Of a stretch of 63,927 nucleotides of DNA, positions 4,487 to 63,927 are shown piece by piece. The DNA lies in NCBI GenBank assembly GCA_030265395.1, contig JARFYF010000036.1, positions 33,422,546 to 33,486,472 of the forward strand, in the 5' to 3' direction. Each line of letters begins with the position of its first letter. Positions within the stretch are counted from its first letter, which is position 1. The position numbers and the translations under genes are program-made. This stretch comes from Rhina ancylostomus (Eukaryota). Below the pieces are notes generated by a model that was not told where the DNA came from, searched no databases, and saw only the letters and a program-made list of their open reading frames with translations.

Positions 4487-4710
4487 GGCTGTCTGTAAGG
4501 AGTTTGTAAGTTCTCTCTGCTTCTGCGTGGGTTTCCTCCAGGTGCTCCAGTTTCCTCCCATGTTCCAAAGACATACAGGTTAGGAGCTGTGGGCATGCTA
4601 TGTTGGCTCTGAAAGAGCAATGACACTTGCAGGTTGTCCCCAGCACATTGTCAGTTATGCAAAAAGATGCATTTCACTGTGTTTTGATGTACATGTGACT
4701 AATAAATAAA
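4487..4710 (+). mobile_element. V-domain SINE, 5'-truncated, Rex1/Babar-type tail
   Basis: V core gtgggtttcctccaggtgctccagtttcctccca; tail gcatttcactgtg..gtacatgtgactaataaa. Confidence 0.85.
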
Positions 4711-12619: not shown

Positions 12620-12865
12620 GGGAAGCACGGTAGTGTAGCAGTTAGTGCGACACTATTACAGCACCAGCGATCGGGGTTTGATTCCCGTCACTGTCTGTAA
12701 GGACTTTGTACATTCTCCCTGTGTCTGCGTGGGATTCCTCCAGGTGCTCCGGTTTCCTCCCACATTCTAAAGATGTACAGGTAGGTTAATATGGGTTTTA
12801 AAATGGGCGGCGCGGACCTGTTGGGCCAGAAGGGCCTGTTACCATGCTGTAAATAAAAAATATTA
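12620..12865 (+). mobile_element. Full V-domain tRNA SINE with CR1-type tail
   Basis: Head gcacggtagtgtagcagttag..ggtttgattccc, V core, tail gggccagaagggcctgtt. Confidence 0.9.
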
Positions 12866-19994: not shown

Positions 19995-20210
19995 AAAAAA
20001 ACTGCAAATACTGGAAATCTGAAAGTAAAACAGAAAAGGCTAGAGATACTCAACAGATCAAGTAGCATCTGTGGAAAGAGAAACAGTAAACATCTGGTCT
20101 GAGATGCCCCTTCAATTCTGACGAAGGATCTCTGACCTGAAACATTTCTCTTTTGAATGATGCTGCCTGACCTGTTGAGTGTTTCTGGCATTTTCTGTTC
20201 TGTTTTTATC
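19995..20210. mobile_element. Inverted pair of Penelope-type terminal units
   Basis: Left arm aaacagaaaaggctagagatactcaacagatcaagtagcatc is the reverse complement of right arm gatgctgcctgacctgttgagtgtttctggcattttctgtt. Confidence 0.7.
20114..20146 (+). ncRNA. Degenerate minimal hammerhead ribozyme motif
   Basis: CTGACGA-AGGATC-TCT-GACCT-GAAACATT. Confidence 0.55.
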
Positions 20211-20402: not shown

Positions 20403-20742
20403 CACAGCACGGTGGCACAGCTAGTAGAGCCACTGGCTTGCAGCCCCAGAGACCCAAGTTCAATCCTGACCCTGGGTCCTTCTGTGTGGAGTTTGCATGT
20501 TCTTCCTCTGACTGTGTGGGTTTCCTCGAGGTGTCTGATTTCCTCCCACATCCCAAAGACATGCAGGTTGGTAAGTTAAATGGCCACTGTAAATTGACCT
20601 GAATGTATAAGTGAGCGATAGAATCAGAGGGTAGTTGGTGGGAATGATGGGAGAATAAAAAGTTGTATTTTGTAGGATTAATGTAAATGGGTGGTTGATG
20701 GTTGGTCTGGACTTGATGGGCTGAAGGGCCTGTTTCTGTGCT
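20403..20742 (+). mobile_element. V-domain (HE1-like) SINE inserted in an L2 tail (20270-20795)
   Basis: tRNA head, V core and CR1-type tail; flanked by L2 end ..ctataaaaattaaagttgttgttgttg. Confidence 0.85.
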
Positions 20743-33065: not shown

Positions 33066-34196
33066 GCCATGCCAAATATTAAATATTGAACCGGTGCTCT
33101 ACTTTTGGAGTCTGTCTTCCACTTGGGTTTGTTGAGTCACTGCTGTATTGCAGTTTGCTTCACCATGTTTGGGACTTCAATGCTGTGCTCCATCAGACTT
33201 GTTATGGAGGTTCTCATGCCTTACAGCAGAGCCCCACAGAGAAATCACTTCAAGGAAAGCCTTAGCAGTCTTTATCAAGATCATTCCTTTTTTGAATTGT
33301 TTTTGTAACACTGGAGGATGTCTTTGGCAAATACCTTTTGAAAAGTTAATTTATGGCTAACGTCTAACTCAGGGCTGCCTCCGTGACATGACGTTTCATT
33401 ACGTGACTTTGGATTATAATCTCTCCCTCCTTTTGAGTGCAATCAATGGGGTTTCTCTTGGCTGCAGAGGTGTTGGTAAATGCAGAGCCTTTGAGCTTGA
33501 CTTAAAAAAAATCTCTAGAAGAGAGATCCCACAATTACTTCATTTATAAATAGCAAATACCCTTCAATAACCAATAACTTCACACAAATCATTCCCAATG
33601 TACTACTTATCCATAATAAAGGTTTGGTGGGGGATATTGAAAGAATGATCCACATTTTGAACTNNNNNNNNNNTTGCTCACCAGATCATGAATGTGGATG
33701 GTATTGCAAAACTAACTATTATTTGACTACCTCTAGAAATAAATGCCACAGTCTTCACAAAGGACTTGCACCTTTCACAAAATCATCGAACTTTACAGCA
33801 TTGATGGAGGCCAGATAGCCATCATGCCATAAATGCTTTTCAGATCATCCCACTTCCCAGCTCCCAGCTCCCTACTAGTCTGGTAGGTAATAACACATCA
33901 AGTGTTTACCCATGTATATTTAATTGTGATGAAGACTTCTACCTCCAGTTCCCTTGAAGGCAGTGAATTCCAGATACCTCTCACTCATTGGGAAAAAGTA
34001 TTTCTCACCATTCCTCTATGCTTTTGAAAAAGGATGTTGATATAAATGAAGAGATTTAAATAAGTTGTTTTCCTATTTTAGTTGTCATATGGGTGAATGG
34101 ATCTCATGTGCTTTATACCTTGTGAAGAGTTTACATTAAGCCAATAGCACTAGCTTTTAATAATATATCATCTTTGATGCAGCATTAATCAGTCAG

Positions 34197-34337
34197 CAGT
34201 CCAGATGAAGGGACATGACCCAAAATATCAACTGTCCATTTCCCTCTCTATGTAGGTGCTTCCTGACTTGCTGAGTTCCTCCAGAGGTTTGTTTTTTTGC
34301 TCCAGATTTCAGCATCTGCAGTCACTTATGTCTTCAC
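34197..34337 (+). mobile_element. Solo hammerhead-bearing Penelope-type unit with 11-bp TSD
   Basis: TAATCAGTCAG at 34186-34196 and 34338-34348; unit starts CAGTC-CAGATGA-AGGGAC-AT-GACCC-AAAATATC-AACTG. Confidence 0.8.
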
Positions 34338-34374
34338 TAATCAGTCAGAAATTGACTAGTCATGAAAATCAAAA

Positions 34375-34490
34375 TAAGCTGCAGATTTTGAAAATCTGAA
34401 AAACCAACAGAAAACGCTGGAAAATTCATCTGGTCAGACAGCACCTGTGGAAAGAGAAACAGTTAATGTTTCAGTTCCAGGACCCCTAGT
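34375..34490 (-). mobile_element. Penelope-type terminal unit
   Basis: aacagaaaacgctggaaa..gcacctgtggaaagagaaacagttaatgtttcag. Confidence 0.7.
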
Positions 34491-36859
34491 TCAGGTGACA
34501 GAAGCTTGTGAGGTTTAAAGAGTTTTAAAGGAGCAGACAGAAGTGGAGAGGTTTAGGCATATAATCCCAGGGGAAAGGAAATGGGCAGTACCCAACAGAC
34601 TAGAGTTAGGGGGATCTTAACACAAGGGTGAGAATTTTAAATTCAAGGCATTGGGAGACTGGAACCGATGTCAGTCACTCTGAATACTTTCATACAAGTC
34701 ACAGACAATTAAAAAGACATTAATTTTCATATTACAGACACTTTAGCAATGTGACTACATCATTATAGTTTATATAATGTGATTCTAATACTTTGCAAAG
34801 GTAGCTGCAGGCAAAATATTTCAATGCAGACCCTACATATGAAATGAGATGTAGTTACTGTTGTTTCTGAAATTAATGGTGCATTTTTAGTTGAGCAATT
34901 TAATTTAATGATGCAATTCATCCAATAAAGACAACATTATAGAGAATATGTACAGGCACAATGATGTTACCTTTGTTCTGGATAATGCTCCTGATGTTGG
35001 TGACTCTTTATTTTATCCCCAAGTGCTTGTGTGTTTATTAAATGAAGGTTTAAAAAAATGAGTTTTACAAACAAATTATTCATAAGTACAATCACTGGCT
35101 ACAGAACAGCAGAGCTTAATGTTCTATTTAATCAATGATTTTGGTTAAATTTGTTTTCTTATATTCTGTACAATATTTTTGTAAATTGAATTTGTTTGCT
35201 TCTTCCCCTCTCAATCTCCTGATTTTTCATTTTGATATCTCATCTTGTTTGACTTCTTTGAGCCTTTCTCCTTTCTCTCTGCATTCACACTAAAAATAAG
35301 TCGCTTATGTGTGCCAGTGTGTTGATGACTTGTTGTGCTTCCATCCTTATGGTTGTCTCTGTTTAACTGAATATCGGGAGATGAACAAAGTGGACAGCTG
35401 ATGCTTTAGCTCTCGCACCTAGTCTTTGACACAGGACCACAGATATCTATAAAATAATAGGAAAAATCTAAAATCAATTGCATTGCTTTTTTTTCATCCC
35501 TGTTTCAAATATTCTTTGAAGATTTCATTGACAAGTTTAAAGGAACCATGCTCTTTTCTGAAATTTATAAACTACATTCTCCAGAACAAATAAAATTAAG
35601 TTGGAACACAGATTATTCAACAATAGAGCAGAGCAAGGCCATTCAATCCATCTTACTGGCACTAGCTCTCTTTGGTTAGATCCATGTGCTTTCTCCTCCC
35701 TCCCCCANNNNNNNNNNNNNNNNNNCATCCAGTCTCCTTTTAGAAAGTTCCAGTTGGATCTCCATACACCGTCCTTTCAAGAAGTGCTTTCAAGATTGTC
35801 ACATGCAAAGTTATGCAGGTAGTTTCCATTATGGGTGTGAGCATAATAGTTCCTAATAGTGAGAAAAGAAAATCATGACAAAAAAATAAATAGCACTTTA
35901 GGTTTTGTTCAAATTTGCATTGACGTGTTTCAAACAATGTCATGAAAGATTGTTATTAAGTCAGATATCACACTTCTGGGATCACACTTCAGAGAACCAA
36001 GAGAGTTTAAAAAAGGAAAGGTAGACACACTTCCTGCTGGTTCTTGTCTTAGGAAGCAGCCAGGGGTTTAAAAGCAGCTGCAAGCTACTGAGAAACAATT
36101 ATCCTCTGACCTCAATAAATGCTTAGCTAGTAACCTAAGTATGTGCCCATTTACAGCAATTAGAAACAGGACAGAGTAGATCACACACAGTTCTAGCAGA
36201 AAAATAAGACTATCATATATTGTACTCCTGTCCTTACAAAGAAGCCTATTAGATGACTAAAACAACTAATGTTACTCAGGTGGGATATACGTAACTGTTA
36301 CTACCAATATTGTTATAGTTTAAAAAAGGAGCCTCTTCAGAAGGTGAGATTCTTACAACATAACATATTTATTTTATTCAATTTCAGAAGCTGTTGTCTT
36401 CACACAGACTGTTTTTCTAATGGAATTTATTGAATGTCTCTTACAGTTTTGGAAATTAACTCAACATTCTCTCCAAACTACTCACATTTCTCTGTTAATG
36501 CTGGTTGTATAAACAGGAAGAGACAGGCTACTTGATATATTCCTGGAGATGTTTGGTGTGAGCCTTCTGAATTGGATGAATCAACGAGTGCAGATGTGCC
36601 CCAATTATAGGAGCATTGCCTTCACATAAAGCTCGAGAATGGTGATTTAAAATGTGTGGAAATTCTATTAATGATTGAGGGAGAAATCATGTCCAACAGT
36701 TCTCTGTAATTCTGTTGTGTTAATCTGGCTTGTGCCTCTTCTTCTCTTCACTGTAAAGTTAGTTGTCTGTGATCTGACATTCACAGTACATTTTATAGAC
36801 CCTAGTTCTCCTCTCGTCTCTCTCTGTTGAACATGTATGACTGTCATTCAACTGTTCGG

Positions 36860-37599: not shown

Positions 37600-37872
37600 A
37601 TCCTCTCTCTCTTGGTCTTTCAGATTTCTTTCAACTCTTCCTGTTAACGGCTGCCTCAGAAATGCCTTTACCACCGTGTTACAGCCAGTGCCACCAGCAT
37701 GGTCTCCATCCTACCATAGATCTCCTCTATTGTTCTGTCCAGCTTCCCCCACTTTCTCTGCAACTTGAAACTTGTTTTATTTCTGAATTTTTCCAGTTCT
37801 GATGATATTAGCTCTAATTCTCTCACCACTGATGCTGCTTGACCTGCGGAGTAGTTCCAGCATTGTCTGTTG
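37600..37872 (+). mobile_element. Penelope-type pyrimidine-rich 3' region + terminal unit (stem II deleted)
   Basis: ttccagttctgatga..gatgctgcttgacctgcggagta.ttccagcatt. Confidence 0.6.
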
Positions 37873-50270: not shown

Positions 50271-50573
50271 GGTGGCACGGTAGTGTGGCAGTTAGCGTAA
50301 TGCTATTACAGTGCCAGAGACTTGGGTTCAATTCCCACCACTGCCTGTGAGGAATTTGTATGTTCTCCCTGTGTCTGTGTGGGTTTCCTTCAGATGCTCT
50401 GGTTTCCTCCCACATTCCAAAGATGCACGTTTTAGGAATTGTGGGCATGATATGTTGGCACTGGAAGCATGGTGACACTTGCAGGCTACCCCCAGAACAT
50501 TATATGCAAAAGATGCATTTCACTGTGAGTTTCGATGTACATGTGACTAATAAAGATAGCTTATCTTATCTTA
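50271..50573 (+). mobile_element. Full V-domain tRNA SINE with Rex1/Babar-type tail
   Basis: Head ggcacggtagtgtggcagttag..gggttcaattccc, V core, tail tttcactgtg..gtacatgtgactaataaa, (cttat)n. Confidence 0.9.
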
Positions 50574-50594: not shown

Positions 50595-50705
50595 AAGTGA
50601 AAACAGAAAATGCTGGAAATACTCAGCAAGTTAGACTGCATCTGTGGGAAGAGTAACAGAGTTAACATTTCAGGCCAACGACCCTTCATCAGAATTAGGC
50701 ATTTA
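50595..50705 (-). mobile_element. Penelope-type terminal unit
   Basis: aaacagaaaatgctggaaatactcagca..gcatctgtgg. Confidence 0.75.
50660..50696 (-). ncRNA. Minimal hammerhead ribozyme motif (canonical CUGAUGA core)
   Basis: AATT-CTGATGA-A-GGGTC-GTT-GGCCT-GAAATGTT-AACT. Confidence 0.65.
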
Positions 50706-51181: not shown

Positions 51182-51357
51182 TTTTTTCCTTTCTCTCCTA
51201 ACCTTTGACCCATCCCCCGATGGATCTGCTCTCCCCTCCTCCCCCACACCTGCCCATCGCTATCTCTTACCTGTATCTACCTATCACCACCTTGTGCCCA
51301 CCCTGCCTCTCCTCTTTTCTCCACCTATCATTGCTCTGCTTTTCCCTCCTATATATT
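51182..51357 (+). mobile_element. Penelope-type pyrimidine-rich 3' region
   Basis: C/T-rich tract atctacctatcacc.. across the gap from the terminal unit. Confidence 0.5.
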
Positions 51358-51524
51358 AAGGTACCCAGCAAGTGAAGTTTATAAGAAAATAACTCAAATA
51401 AACTTTGAACCAATCATGAACCATGCATCTGACCACTATGTCTTGCCTTGTGAATTTTTGTGAGTTAAATAAGGAGATTCTGTTTGATCACTTCTGAAAG
51501 AGCAGAATGTTTTAAAGGCCAACT

Positions 51525-59429: not shown

Positions 59430-59735
59430 TTGTCTGGAGTGCAAAACAAAACTGACGCTTAACTACATCAGATTTTAAGGCAGATGATAAAAGACTTGGT
59501 TTGGTAGGTAGGTAATTAAGGAGCTTCTTGGGGAGAAGTGGGGAAGTCTGGTTTGGATGGGGTTGAAAATTCCAGACATTTTGGCCTTGGCAGCAAATGG
59601 CTTGGCTGGTAGTGTGAATGAGCAAGTGACTGGAATGGGAGGAGTACAGATACCTCAGAAGGTTGCAGAGCTCGATGACATTGCAGGGACAGAGGAGGGG
59701 CGAGGAATTTCAAAGATAAAGTAAGAATTTTGTAG
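59430..59735 (-). mobile_element. L2 3' fragment
   Basis: ggtaggtaattaaggagc..aattccaga..ggccttggcagc; similar to 32038-32400. Confidence 0.6.
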
Positions 59736-59767
59736 TAAAAATTTAAAAATGCAGGAAAAACTCTAAA

Positions 59768-61020
59768 TCATGAATGAAGGGTCTTGACCCGAAACGTCAA
59801 CTGTCCATTTCCCTCCATAGAAGCTGCCTGATCTGCTGAGTTCCTCCAGCAGTTTGTGTGTTGCTCCAGGTTCCAGCATCTGCAGTCTTTCTTGTGTCAG
59901 TCTCATGTGTTGCTAATGTTGTAAAGTCCAGGTAATGTTGTATAGTCTTGCCTACTTTATAGTTGAGGATTTGCTTGATCGGGAGACAGTGTGGGTCAGT
60001 AAGCATGGGTGATGGGGGGTAGGACACAAGCAGCAGAATTTTGGGATACAACAACAATCTGCTGGAGGAATTCAGCGGGTTGAGCAGCATCTGTGGAGGG
60101 TCGAAACCCTGCATCAGGAATTCCTTTCCTCCCACAGATGCTCCCTGACCCTCTTAGTTCCTCCAGCAGATTGTTTGTTGCTCCATATTTCAGTGTCAGC
60201 TTTCTCTTGCGTCTGCTCTGAATTTTGGGATGCCGTTGTTTGTGGTCAATAGGACCACGGAGGCAGACTCTGAAGAAGAAAAAAACCAAGATGATGGAGG
60301 AACTCAGTGGGTCAGGCAGCATCTGTGGAGGGAAATGGACAGTCGATGTTTCGGGCCAAGACCACCAGGACTGCAATTCAACTTCAATCTCGATGAGCAG
60401 AAAAGGCAGTCGTATTTCTTCAAGCTGAATCAAACTTACTGAAGGATTTCTAGAAATCACTGTCAATGCACATGCGGAGGGAAAGGATCTGTTGATGTTC
60501 AGGCCTCAACCCAAAACGTCGACTGTCCATTTCCTTCCACAGATGCTGCCTGACCTTCTGAGTTCCTACAGCATCTTATTTTTTTGCTCCAGATTCCAGC
60601 ATCTGCAGACTCTGAAGTGCTGAATGTAGATGAGGCAAAGGCATAGATGAGAGTTCCAGCTACACATGAGATCAGGTTTTGTTGTAGAGTTGGAAATCAG
60701 TGCCATTAGTGGCGTGGGTGTGTGATACGATTCACACAGACACCCAACTCTACATGGGTTTCCAGACCTGCAACACCAAGGGTTAAAGCCACTCTGTTGA
60801 GACGCAAGAGACTGCAGATGCTAGAATCTGGAGCAACACACAAGATGCTGGATGAACTCAGTGGTTAGGCAGCATCTACAGAGGCAAATAGACAGTCAAC
60901 ATTTTGGGATGATACCCCTCATCTAGACTCAGCGGGTCGAGCAGCATCTGTAGGGGGAAAAGGAATTGTTGACGTTGACCCTGCATCAGGTCCTTGAATG
61001 TCAATGATTCCTTTTCCTCT
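59768..61020. mobile_element. Cluster of at least 7 Penelope-type hammerhead units in both orientations
   Basis: Repeated gatgctgcctga..ctgagttcctccagc unit; TSDs GAATTTTGGGAT (60036/60220) and GCAGACTCTGAAG (60263/60605). Confidence 0.8.
59771..59803 (+). ncRNA. Minimal hammerhead motif, intact 3' half
   Basis: TGAATGA-A-GGGTC-TT-GACCC-GAAACGTC-AACTG. Confidence 0.55.
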
Positions 61021-61689
61021 GCTTATGAATTGACACTGATTTTCACAAATCCTTCAATAAATTTGATGCAGCTTGAAGAAATATGACTGCCTTCTTTGCT
61101 CGGTGATTTAGGAGTTGGATGGGAGGAGACTGATGAGTAAAATAAAATGAGATTCTTGGGGTATTGGTCATTAAATTAAAATGGATCCTTGGGAACTGAT
61201 CGGCTTATAAAAAGGAAAAGGCAAGGCACAGGGAGCTTATTACATCGTAACTGAGCTTCTAGTGAGAAGAATTCATGTATTACAATGCAAATTGACAATG
61301 CTTTTGTGTTGTCATGTATAATAGCTGTTAAGTGTCACATGAAGTCTTAGTAGAATTAGTTGTAACCCTGAGGCAATGTTATTAATTCTTCCAATAACTT
61401 TCATACCAACTATTTATAGTCTGCATATTCAGTGTGTCATAACTGGGGCTGCAGTAGCATGAATTGTTATTAAGCTAACAGCCTATGCATGCAAAAGCTT
61501 CACTTAATAATTATTAGTGTCAGGAGTTATTACACAGCAGCTTTACTGAGGTGCTGTATATTCAGTTGTCATTAGTCTGGTCTCTTCTGGAAGCTGCCTG
61601 AATTTGCTGTCAGTGCACCAATGTTTTGATACCTGCCATATATAACATTTAAAAAAACAGCAGATGTAGTGTGTGTGCACTTCCATCGT

Positions 61690-61930
61690 GACTTTCACAG
61701 CTTAAGCCACAGTTTACAGCAATGAAACACTTTTGAAATGTGGTTGGTGCTGTAATGCAGGAAACTGGCCACCCAATTTATGCATAGCAAGCTCCCATGA
61801 AGAGCAGTGAGATAAGTGATTGGATAACCTGTTGGCTGAGGGATAGATTTTGGCCAGGACATCACCGATCTTCCCAAAATAGTACTGTGGGACCACTTAC
61901 TGAGAAAGCTCTGGTTAATGTCTGCTCCAA
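61690..61930 (-). mobile_element. DeuSINE fragment
   Basis: ccaatttatgcatagcaagctccca..gttggctgagggatag..tggccaggaca. Confidence 0.75.
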
Positions 61931-62254
61931 GTTCTAATCCATCAACAGCGAAGCACACAGATAGTGATGTTATTTAACAACCCCTTGATTGGTGTCAGCT
62001 CGACATGGATCCCTTCACGGATAGGTTAGGGAATGGGGGAGGCATGGTTTTGATTTTTAGCCTGTTGGTCACCCACTTTAGCTTTGACGAGCCCTCGTTT
62101 GATTCCAGTTGGCAAATGGGTGACTCGAGGCACCTTGGACCAGGTTTGCTGTTGGCAGCTGTAGGTTATATCCTGGTAGATGCTGATGGAGGAGGATATG
62201 GAGCTAAGGTGATATTCGTGATGGTTTAAGGTAGGGAGACAAGAAATAAATGGA

Positions 62255-62410
62255 GGGACTTGCATCTCACTATATAGTGCCTTTCACAACCTAGGCTTTT
62301 CCCCATAGCACTCACCAAATGAATACTTTGTGAAGTGTAATCACTGTTGTAGTGGAAGACATCAATAAGAAGGCTCCCACAACCAGCACTATGCTAAAAG
62401 ACCAGATATT
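62255..62410 (-). mobile_element. DeuSINE 3' fragment
   Basis: gacttgcat..tatatagtgcctttcacaacct..gaagtgtaatcactgttgta. Confidence 0.7.
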
Positions 62411-62416
62411 GATGAG

Positions 62417-62760
62417 TCATATAGTCATAGAAAAATACAGCATGGAAACAGATCCTTCAGATACCATTCACACCAGCATGCAACCGGCCATTTACACTCA
62501 TCTTACATTAATCCCATTTCTATTGTCTCCACATTCTCATCAACTCCACCGCCCCGCCCTCCCCCCCCCACCCCCGTATTCCACCACTTGTATACAAACC
62601 AAGGACGTTTTACAGTAGCCAATGAACCTACCAACCCACATGTGTTTGAAACCAGAGCTCCAGGAGGAAACCCATATGGTCACAGGGAGAACACGCAAAC
62701 TTCACACAGTCAGCACCCAAGGTCAGGATTGAACCTAGCTCTCTGGTGCTGTGAGACAGA
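62417..62760 (-). mobile_element. V-domain (HE1-like) SINE
   Basis: ggaggaaaccca..gtcacagggagaac.caaact..cagcacccaaggtcaggattgaacc. Confidence 0.85.
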
Positions 62761-63057
62761 GGTTCTATTCCTTTCAAATGGGAAGGTCGGTAGATGAGCT
62801 TGGACCCACGGTACTTAGTTTGAGTTCTGGAGGAAGATTACTAACTTCTCCTCAGCTCCATGAAGACAAGCACAGACCTGTGCACTCCCCTCTGGGCAGG
62901 CATGGAGTCCATGTGGAGAATTTCCGTGTCCTCTGTAACCTTCGAGGATGGCAATGGGCAAACCAACACACATGAAGGGACCCCATTCTGCATTGTAAAT
63001 GGGACGACTGTCCAACTGGGGAAAAGGCATGATGGCCTTTGAGGGAGATTAGTAGTG

Positions 63058-63303
63058 GAGACACAAGAGACTGCAGACGCTGGAATCTGGAGCAACACAC
63101 AGTAGGCTGGAGGAATTTAGCAGGTCAGGCAGCACCTGTGGAGGGAAGTGGATGGTCGATGTTTCAGGTCGAAACTCTTCATCTGGTCTCAAGATGAAAG
63201 ATCCAAATGAAGGGTCTTGACCCAAAACGTCAGCTGCACATTTCCCTCCATAGATGCTGCCTGACCTGCTGAGTTCCTCCAGCTTTTTGTGTGTTGCAGC
63301 AGC
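63058..63303. mobile_element. Head-to-head inverted dimer of hammerhead units
   Basis: ~95-bp arms around a ~16-nt loop; near-TSD ATTAGTAGTG (63048) / ATTAGTAAGTG (63304). Confidence 0.8.
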
Positions 63304-63927
63304 ATTAGTAAGTGATCATTATCCATGTTGCATACCTACCTCCTCCACTTTATCCTGAGAGTGCAAGCTCTGGAGTGCTGGAATTTTCAACTTTCACAGA
63401 GTATCCTCACGTTTCATTCGAATGGTTCGTTCCCTGCCTGATGTTGATTTTGAAAAATTAAGTCTGATTCAATAGGATTGAATGCAAATAGTGAATGAGA
63501 GGCTGCTGGATTGCAGGGTCCAACAGCAGCTTCACATTGCAATCCTTAAGATCTTTGAAAAATCTCTGTTTAAGTATGCATCATCTTTTCTACTTTACAC
63601 CTTTGTCTGCATCAGATTGATTTTTTTAATTCACAAAGCAAAATACCACAAATGCTGCAAATCTGAAACAAAATAGAAAATGCTGGAAATACTCAGCGAA
63701 GGGAAACAGGTGATCTTCAGGACTGCGAAAACCTAAAAGCAAAACAAAAACTTTAAGATGCAAAGGTAAGCAGGGAGGGGGAGGCAAAGAGAAAACGTTC
63801 TCTGATGGGAAGGGGATGCAATAAGAGAAGAAACTAAAATGTCTATAGGGCAGATGGAATTTTGGGAGTGAGGGTGGTTAAGGCAGCAATGAATAACAAA
63901 CAAATGGTTTTCTCCTTGTTATTATTT

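Follow-up and report, generated by a model that had tools for sequence, protein, structure and literature searches.

Results

The insert at 34197 and its target-site duplication

A 141-nt insert (34197-34337) was identified in the analysed window, by which we mean the whole stretch of 63,927 nt of Rhina ancylostomus DNA to which all coordinates refer, and it is likely an old retrocopy, now dead, of the hammerhead, body and tail that form the terminal region of a Penelope-like element (PLE). The unit matches four of the five features of an endonuclease-bearing PLE terminal fragment, namely the hammerhead, the tail, the inverted arms or partial tandem, and the duplications. The insert is bracketed by an exact direct repeat of the 11-mer TAATCAGTCAG, identical at 11 of 11 positions, just as a sequence-only reading of this DNA had described it (Table 1). 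Exact repeats of at least 11 nt were obtained by chance in 4 of 18,745 random spans under a first null and in 11 of 18,674 under a second.

Contigs from public sequencing runs were used to examine the two junctions of the insert. Those of run X1 (33911-34245 and 34298-34458), which is possibly the source sample and hence not independent, spanned both junctions with 0 differences; both were also bridged by contigs of run X7 (33843-34280 and 34310-34478), which comes from another organism about 92-94% alike, indicating a genuine insertion that predates the divergence of the two. An assembly artefact was therefore rejected as the origin of the insert. No empty site was found among the 15 contig joints listed for the public runs, which counts against the reading as a PLE copy, and the left flank of the insert was not covered by run X15. 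Record 24 of run X20 covers 34332-34481 without running into the unit, and may represent an empty site.

The 34197 copy was 85% identical to the consensus of seven window copies, itself included, and a perfect 11-bp pair beside a copy 15% off its consensus is somewhat lucky and counts against the PLE-copy reading. The pre-insertion target (34342-34362) forms a short, imperfectly palindromic sequence (AGTCA-GAAAT-TGACT); CAGTC, the letters of stem I, also occurs within the duplication TAATCAGTCAG.

A hammerhead motif preserved at the consensus level

With +1 set at the first base of stem I in all unit numbering, the consensus is composed of stem I (+1 to +5), the core (+6 to +12) with an additional A after it, stem II (+14 to +25), GAAAC, a GUC triplet (+31 to +33) and the 3' strand of stem I (+34 to +38), a layout previously proposed by eye which agrees with that of the published PLE minimal hammerheads (PMC4209133). 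The hammerhead is present only at the consensus level. In the 34197 copy the core reads CAGATGA (U4A), GAAA has become AAAA (G12A) and GUC has become AUC, and each stem has one mismatch (A.A in stem II, C.A in stem I); through U4A and G12A, an intact core (CUGANGA, GAAA, NUH) is absent from this copy. G12 is the general base of the hammerhead (PMC6155905), and its loss should kill the ribozyme of the 34197 copy. The core pattern given in the earlier reading occurs at only two places in the window, with three mismatches each, and the 34197 copy is not among them.

The U4A change was shared by four of the six subfamily arms covering the position (34197, 60929, 63190 and 63200; of the other two, one has U and one is ambiguous), whereas U4 was kept in all of the published hammerhead rows compared (44/44; PMC4209133 supplement). 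An older subfamily, with stem I CAGTT/AACTG, has also kept U4. The prevalence of U4A in the subfamily suggests that the ribozyme of its source element was weak or dead while that element was spreading.

Two checks to which the sequence-only reading had pointed, the Rfam hammerhead models and covariation in stems I and II, gave no signal: Rfam had no hammerhead match in the whole window or on the best arm, and in an alignment of 11 decayed arms 59% of the cells were paired, a score that was reached by 294 of 500 shuffles. An Rfam match to MIR2118 at 60059-60169 was set aside as an inverted pair folding back on itself. One C-G to U-A change between the two subfamilies was read by eye. The folding of four single copies was no better than that of shuffles (z 0.44 to -0.93), and two halves of the consensus hammerhead, when cofolded by script, paired mostly via stems I and II, an outcome on which no conclusion is based. 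The 3' half of the script consensus (+51 to +132) formed a long hairpin (z ~ -2.3 against mononucleotide shuffles), single copies of which do not exceed dinucleotide shuffles; the hairpin could be a binding site of the enzyme.

Copies of the family in the window

Iterated nhmmer searches of the 64-kb window recovered 18 related arms in about 11 insertion blocks, close to the dozen or so copies estimated earlier, and the arm profile gave 0 matches in five mononucleotide shuffles of the window. Between 4,764 and 18,386 contigs per public run mapped to a 1.1-kb stretch, nearly all of them on two repeat arms, indicating that the family is very abundant, with contig depth not to be taken as a copy number. 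Exact-pattern scans for the unit yielded 0 loci in the viral, metagenome and prokaryote genome collections.

Eleven of the 18 arms were concentrated in 3.6 kb (59700-63310), which suggests insertion near earlier copies or local rearrangement. A stretch of about 130 nt at 60371-60501 has an inverted copy, 76% identical and 0.5 kb apart, at 60995-61125; it sits inside the insertion with the 13-bp duplication, includes a piece of another arm, and is either local template-switch filler or derived from a shared composite source. The arm at 37740-37872 resembled by eye the loose-end consensus of the older subfamily described below. The pyrimidine-rich piece at 51182-51357 matches the upstream region of the longer copies, stops right after TATATATT, and is separated by a gap of 476 N from an arm at 50600-50697 with which it lies back to back. 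Another repeat family, whose head is tRNA-like (50279-50500, 4489-4649, 12691-12851 and 20482-20567; Rfam tRNA score of 26.4 bits, below threshold), is probably a tRNA-derived SINE, and many decayed LINE-like fragments were observed elsewhere in the window.

Table 1. Positions in the window of the insert at 34197, its parts, and related arms and pieces.
Feature	Positions	Strand	Basis
Left copy of the 11-bp target-site duplication	34186..34196	+	Repeat and bridging contigs (X1, X7)
Decayed minimal type I hammerhead	34197..34234	+	Sequence, 11-arm alignment, published layout
Stem I 5' strand; core (U4A); extra A	34197-34201; 34202-34208; 34209	+	Hammerhead of the 34197 copy
Stem II; decayed GAAAC	34210-34214/34217-34221; 34222-34226	+	Hammerhead of the 34197 copy
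Cleavage triplet (cut expected after 34229); stem I 3' strand	34227-34229; 34230-34234	+	Hammerhead of the 34197 copy
Body of the terminal region, reaching roughly to the short 3' end class (+94 to +107) of the PLE unit	34235..34300	+	
Optional 30-40 nt tail, ending at the right duplication	34301..34337	+	Tail as in PMC8557442, PMC11167929
Right copy of the target-site duplication	34338..34348	+	Repeat and bridging contigs
Neighbouring arm of the older subfamily (stem I CAGTT/AACTG); separate insertion, no duplication found	34362..34497	-	
Head-to-head inverted pair, older subfamily; tail only on - arm, no duplication left	19996..20200		
Older arm extending upstream beyond stem I through a tract of pyrimidines (uncertain upstream edge)	37740..37872	+	
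Likely upstream pseudo-LTR piece ending in TATATATT; no hammerhead after it	51182..51357	+	
Tailed solo arm; stem II the best preserved, with GAAACGUC; no duplication found	59766..59899	+	
Head-to-head inverted pair; tail only on + arm, 12-bp duplication at 60036 and 60220	60036..60231		
Inverted composite with ~130 nt filler; 13-bp duplication at 60263 and 60605	60263..60617		
Two arms in partial tandem, with a short overlap (GAGT) at the joint	60796..60994	-	
Head-to-head inverted pair; tail only on - arm, 7-bp duplication at 63048 and 63304	63048..63310		

PLE-like 3' ends, inverted pairs and duplications

The 3' ends of the 18 arms, two of which were corrected by eye to the duplication edge, fell mainly into two classes, seven at about +94 to +107 and nine at +121 to +136, while two arms ended earlier at internal junctions. 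The optional tail of 30-40 nt was present in nine of the 18 arms and missing in seven; such a tail, often found on one end of the insertion, is a PLE feature (PMC8557442), and in an anole PLE it marks two internal sites at which reverse transcription starts (PMC11167929). Four head-to-head inverted pairs were observed alongside one partial tandem, and in all of the pairs (4/4) the tail was carried by exactly one arm.

Target duplications of 11, 12, 13 and 7 bp were detected at four of the 11 blocks with 13 edge definitions tried, a 7-bp duplication being expected by chance in 4.9% of random spans. The lack of a duplication of at least 7 bp at the remaining blocks (7/11) counts against the PLE-copy reading. 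Tandem Repeats Finder listed 10 arrays in the 64-kb window, none of them of this unit. The link to PLEs that had been made in the sequence-only reading is upheld by the minimal-hammerhead layout and by a real target duplication.

Relatives among proteins and gene models

A profile built from five translated arms matched 29 proteins among 1.84 billion, none of which (0/29) carries an RT or GIY-YIG Pfam domain. Word searches and a full HMMER search found no RT or GIY-YIG frame tied to the unit, which counts against the PLE-copy reading, and an atlas search for a PLE partner protein gave no match. Ten of the matched proteins were looked up, and the four named ones were gene models from rays, one from Mobula, two from Hypanus and one from Narcine; judged by these matches, the host is likely a cartilaginous fish and probably a ray. 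The unit appears as the last exon of a Mobula C-type lectin and as the first exon in the models of a Hypanus parkin and of a Narcine Gla protein, while another Hypanus protein has it as an internal stretch (P0020, P0021 and P0030 for the ray models other than the lectin). Isoforms X1 and X2 of the Mobula lectin diverge from isoform X3 exactly where the unit is entered (P0002/P0033 compared with P0032), which implies a putative splice acceptor between +3 and +4 (CAG/T) in this model, at a position deduced from the protein.

In two further matches, P0009 and P0046, about 150 codons of upstream sequence are read into the unit. The best match of this upstream part among 1,320 windows was 51182-51361, possibly with a composition bias. 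The N-terminus of P0009 is reminiscent of what we take to be the end of a PLE endonuclease domain. As an idea, an ATG near +55 might be a candidate start of the PLE ORF.

5' ends cluster at stem I

The 5' end lies at +1 to +10 in 12-13 of the 18 arms and deeper inside the unit in four (+15, +22, +37 to +39, and +70), and arm 37790 continues upstream. The clustering was the same for arms with short and with long 3' ends, indicating that the boundary follows position and not length, and the upstream flanks of 14 arms were no more alike than random, inverted partners excepted. The claim of the sequence-only reading that 5' ends at stem I are non-random is supported in the window.

The contigs of the public runs gave a view of the sequence that lies beyond this boundary. 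Among the rows listed, none of which came from X15, loose contig ends before 34197 numbered 286 in X1, 292 in X7 and 209 in X20, and their consensus upstream of 34197 was pyrimidine-rich, with an agreement of 0.38-0.44. In a simulation that used a stand-in upstream sequence and our own definition of agreement, a value of 0.32 was obtained with nothing shared, and the observed values were reached when about 20-50% of contigs shared upstream sequence; the agreement in a 3'-end control was 0.38-0.39, and the share of upstream-extending contigs may be lower. It appears that about 20-50% of the contigs reaching stem I continue into common upstream sequence, and the 5' peak looks real, with a minority of longer copies.

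An unlikely reading of this peak is that the arms descend from a separate short non-autonomous master, SINE-like, about 140 nt long and beginning at stem I, which would have been transcribed independently and copied in trans by PLE enzymes without any need for cleavage. The sharpness of the peak, the dissimilar upstream flanks and the approximately 50-80% of contigs that reach stem I without common upstream sequence all speak for such a master, which the common U4A could mark, and so do the Hypanus and Narcine gene models that begin inside the unit and the non-autonomous PLEs known in Chlamydomonas (PMC8557442, PMC9977147). However, long forms with the same end exist, the peak is found in both subfamilies, each of which would need a short master of its own, and the 3' ends obey the PLE tail rule; moreover, ARAGORN finds no tRNA gene in the window and no A-rich tail was seen. 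Nothing in the window requires a separate short master.

Random 5' truncation of a PLE, with the peak arising from low processivity and detection, is more doubtful still. New insertions of Chlamys PLEs have a median of 128 bp without any hammerhead (PMC9977147), and in our own data the profile began at +1, arms within an insertion are not independent and very short fragments would be missed, all of which could favour such an origin. Against this, the pile-up of 12 of 18 ends within 10 nt has a binomial probability of ~1e-8 relative to a flat 100-nt range, a rough figure given that the arms are paired within insertions and the profile starts at +1, and it is seen in short- and long-3'-end arms alike.

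The sequence-only reading had further proposed that the unit moves as a retrozyme-like ribozyme element, that is, that tandem or dimer transcripts self-cleave, circularise and are then reverse-transcribed by PLE enzymes into new loci. Its PLE hammerhead, duplication and 5' clustering at stem I were retained, but this mode of movement was not, and we regard it as very improbable. The consensus does keep the ACGU palindrome needed for helix III of a dimer, and solo 'monomer' relatives have been described, including one from a chondrichthyan (bioRxiv 10.64898/2026.07.22.740005). Yet a self-cleaved or circular template would give starts at +34 or head-to-tail arrays, and their absence weakens this reading: none of the 18 arms starts at the cleavage site (the nearest start at +37 to +39), no circularly permuted copy was seen, and the 64-kb window holds one partial tandem but no tandem array of the unit, PLE signatures being found instead. 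The U4A of most subfamily arms, set against the invariant U4 of the published rows, and a stem covariation no higher than that of shuffles point the same way. A SINE with a tRNA, 7SL or 5S head was discarded, as there is no tRNA gene (ARAGORN), no Rfam match on the unit and no A tail. A splice-acceptor origin of the 5' peak was set aside for the 34197 copy, in which +1 to +3 are flush with the duplication; the arms are moreover without a common upstream exon.

Discussion

Proposed mechanism

For the PLE-copy reading that we prefer, the enzyme, the internal initiation and the cause of the 5' peak are inferred as follows. The reverse transcriptase and endonuclease of the PLE itself probably inserted the copy, in a process that would have cut an AT-rich target and would explain the 11-bp duplication. 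Reverse transcription likely began internally, at the tail end of an uncut RNA, and would then have covered about 140 nt back to stem I, where copies preferentially stop. Ribozyme cleavage was likely no part of the cycle; in an anole PLE, insertion stays normal when the ribozyme is mutated, and the cut site is neither the start nor the end of any RNA read (PMC11167929), and such cut-independent insertion fits both the absent +34 class and the common U4A. A short copy lacking the upstream region would not be copied again unless it had landed behind a promoter.

The stop at stem I is most likely explained by a pseudo-LTR transcript that starts at this point, with the enzyme running off the 5' end of the RNA; stalling or trimming at the folded motif would be the main alternative. 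Within the PLE-copy model, we regard run-off at the transcript start as a credible cause, though one held with less than even confidence, and stalling, trimming or template switching at a folded or protein-bound motif as a possible one held with rather less; a splice-related boundary seems improbable, and other causes take up the remainder.

A more specific form of the run-off proposal, which we advance tentatively from the sequence, is that the transcript of the ray PLE would start on stem I, with TCAGTC as initiator and a TATA-like box about 30 nt upstream, and that internal initiation at the 5'-proximal tail site would yield a discrete run-off cDNA of 100-140 nt, comparable to a strong-stop product, which would be integrated directly. 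Stem I overlaps TCAGTC, which is presumably initiator-like, and from about -30 to -24 the loose-end consensus consists of A and T alone. Two other observations were counted for a run-off start: the upstream piece at 51182-51357 ends in TATATATT, and the Hypanus and Narcine gene models have their beginning inside the unit. The putative Mobula splice acceptor at the same CAG/T counts against a start site at stem I, as would, by analogy, the start in D. virilis, which lies 46 nt before a 75-nt intron ending at helix I, about 120 nt upstream (PMC2377424), and the short copies made by Chlamys PLEs that have no hammerhead (PMC9977147). In the PMC4209133 supplement, the initiator-like contexts UCAGU or UCAUU were noticed, by eye and with no control, just before the core in Nasonia, Ixodes 2, Trimeresurus, Xenopus 1, Ciona and S. 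mansoni 2.

Comparison with known systems

The unit resembles the minimal type I hammerheads of metazoan PLE pseudo-LTRs (PMC4209133) in its U-rich 5' flank, short helix I, core with one extra base, G-C opening of helix II, GAAAC-GUH and palindromic helix III stub. It differs from the rows compared, among which there is no cartilaginous fish, in carrying U4A; those motifs, mostly dispersed and single, were ascribed to truncated PLEs, and no 5'-end peak at helix I is described in the accessible parts of that work. The unit is likewise similar to the Poseidon element PAc of Anolis carolinensis (PMC11167929), in which the hammerhead is followed by two 3' end classes at 110-150 nt, targets are AT-rich and insertion occurs without the need for cleavage; In PAc, the ORF starts at stem II; for the ray unit, the searches described above found no protein partner.

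Head-to-head arms, a tail on one end, solo pseudo-LTRs and captured sequence between repeats are shared with Penelope of Adineta vaga and with the general PLE pattern (PMC3846280, PMC8557442), and duplications of 8-10 bp together with inverted and solo pseudo-LTRs have been published for rotifer PLEs (PMC3846280); unlike in Adineta vaga, the copies observed here are much more abundant, most of them with a length of only about 100-140 nt. Animal non-LTR retrozymes (PMC7761336; bioRxiv 10.64898/2026.07.22.740005) are similar in being non-coding and PLE-derived, in their type I hammerhead, their size and their solo monomers, but retrozymes are defined by tandem units, intact ribozymes and circular RNA (PMC7761336, PMC6765202), whereas the ray copies are without arrays or cleavage-defined ends. 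The Chlamys PLEs MRC1 and Chlamys-N4 (PMC8557442, PMC9977147) also correspond to very short PLE-made insertions, but they have no canonical hammerhead and include proven non-autonomous masters.

A preprint has already proposed that animal retrozymes, solo monomers included, derive from PLEs and are non-autonomous (10.64898/2026.07.22.740005). In the literature covered, which was mostly without subscription papers, neither this ray family nor a U4A change in a PLE hammerhead nor a peak of 5' ends at helix I was found described, and the accessible part of PMC4191386 yielded nothing on U4; the family may already be listed in Repbase or Dfam.

Implications

The 34197 copy is an inert fossil of a known kind, and the value of the family to which it belongs is as a test case; some ray gene models also draw exons from the unit. 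Genomic evidence that PLEs can spread without cleavage would come from a very abundant subfamily whose core has changed. If the 5' peak corresponds to the start of transcription, it would link the internal initiation observed in vitro to the flood of solo hammerheads in animal genomes. Run-off, if true, would explain why solo minimal hammerheads occur by the thousand in animal genomes, with ends as uniform as those of SINEs, with no need for a retrozyme or a separate SINE, as well as the amplification of a subfamily despite its U4A core, and solo hammerheads would then be by-products rather than replicons.
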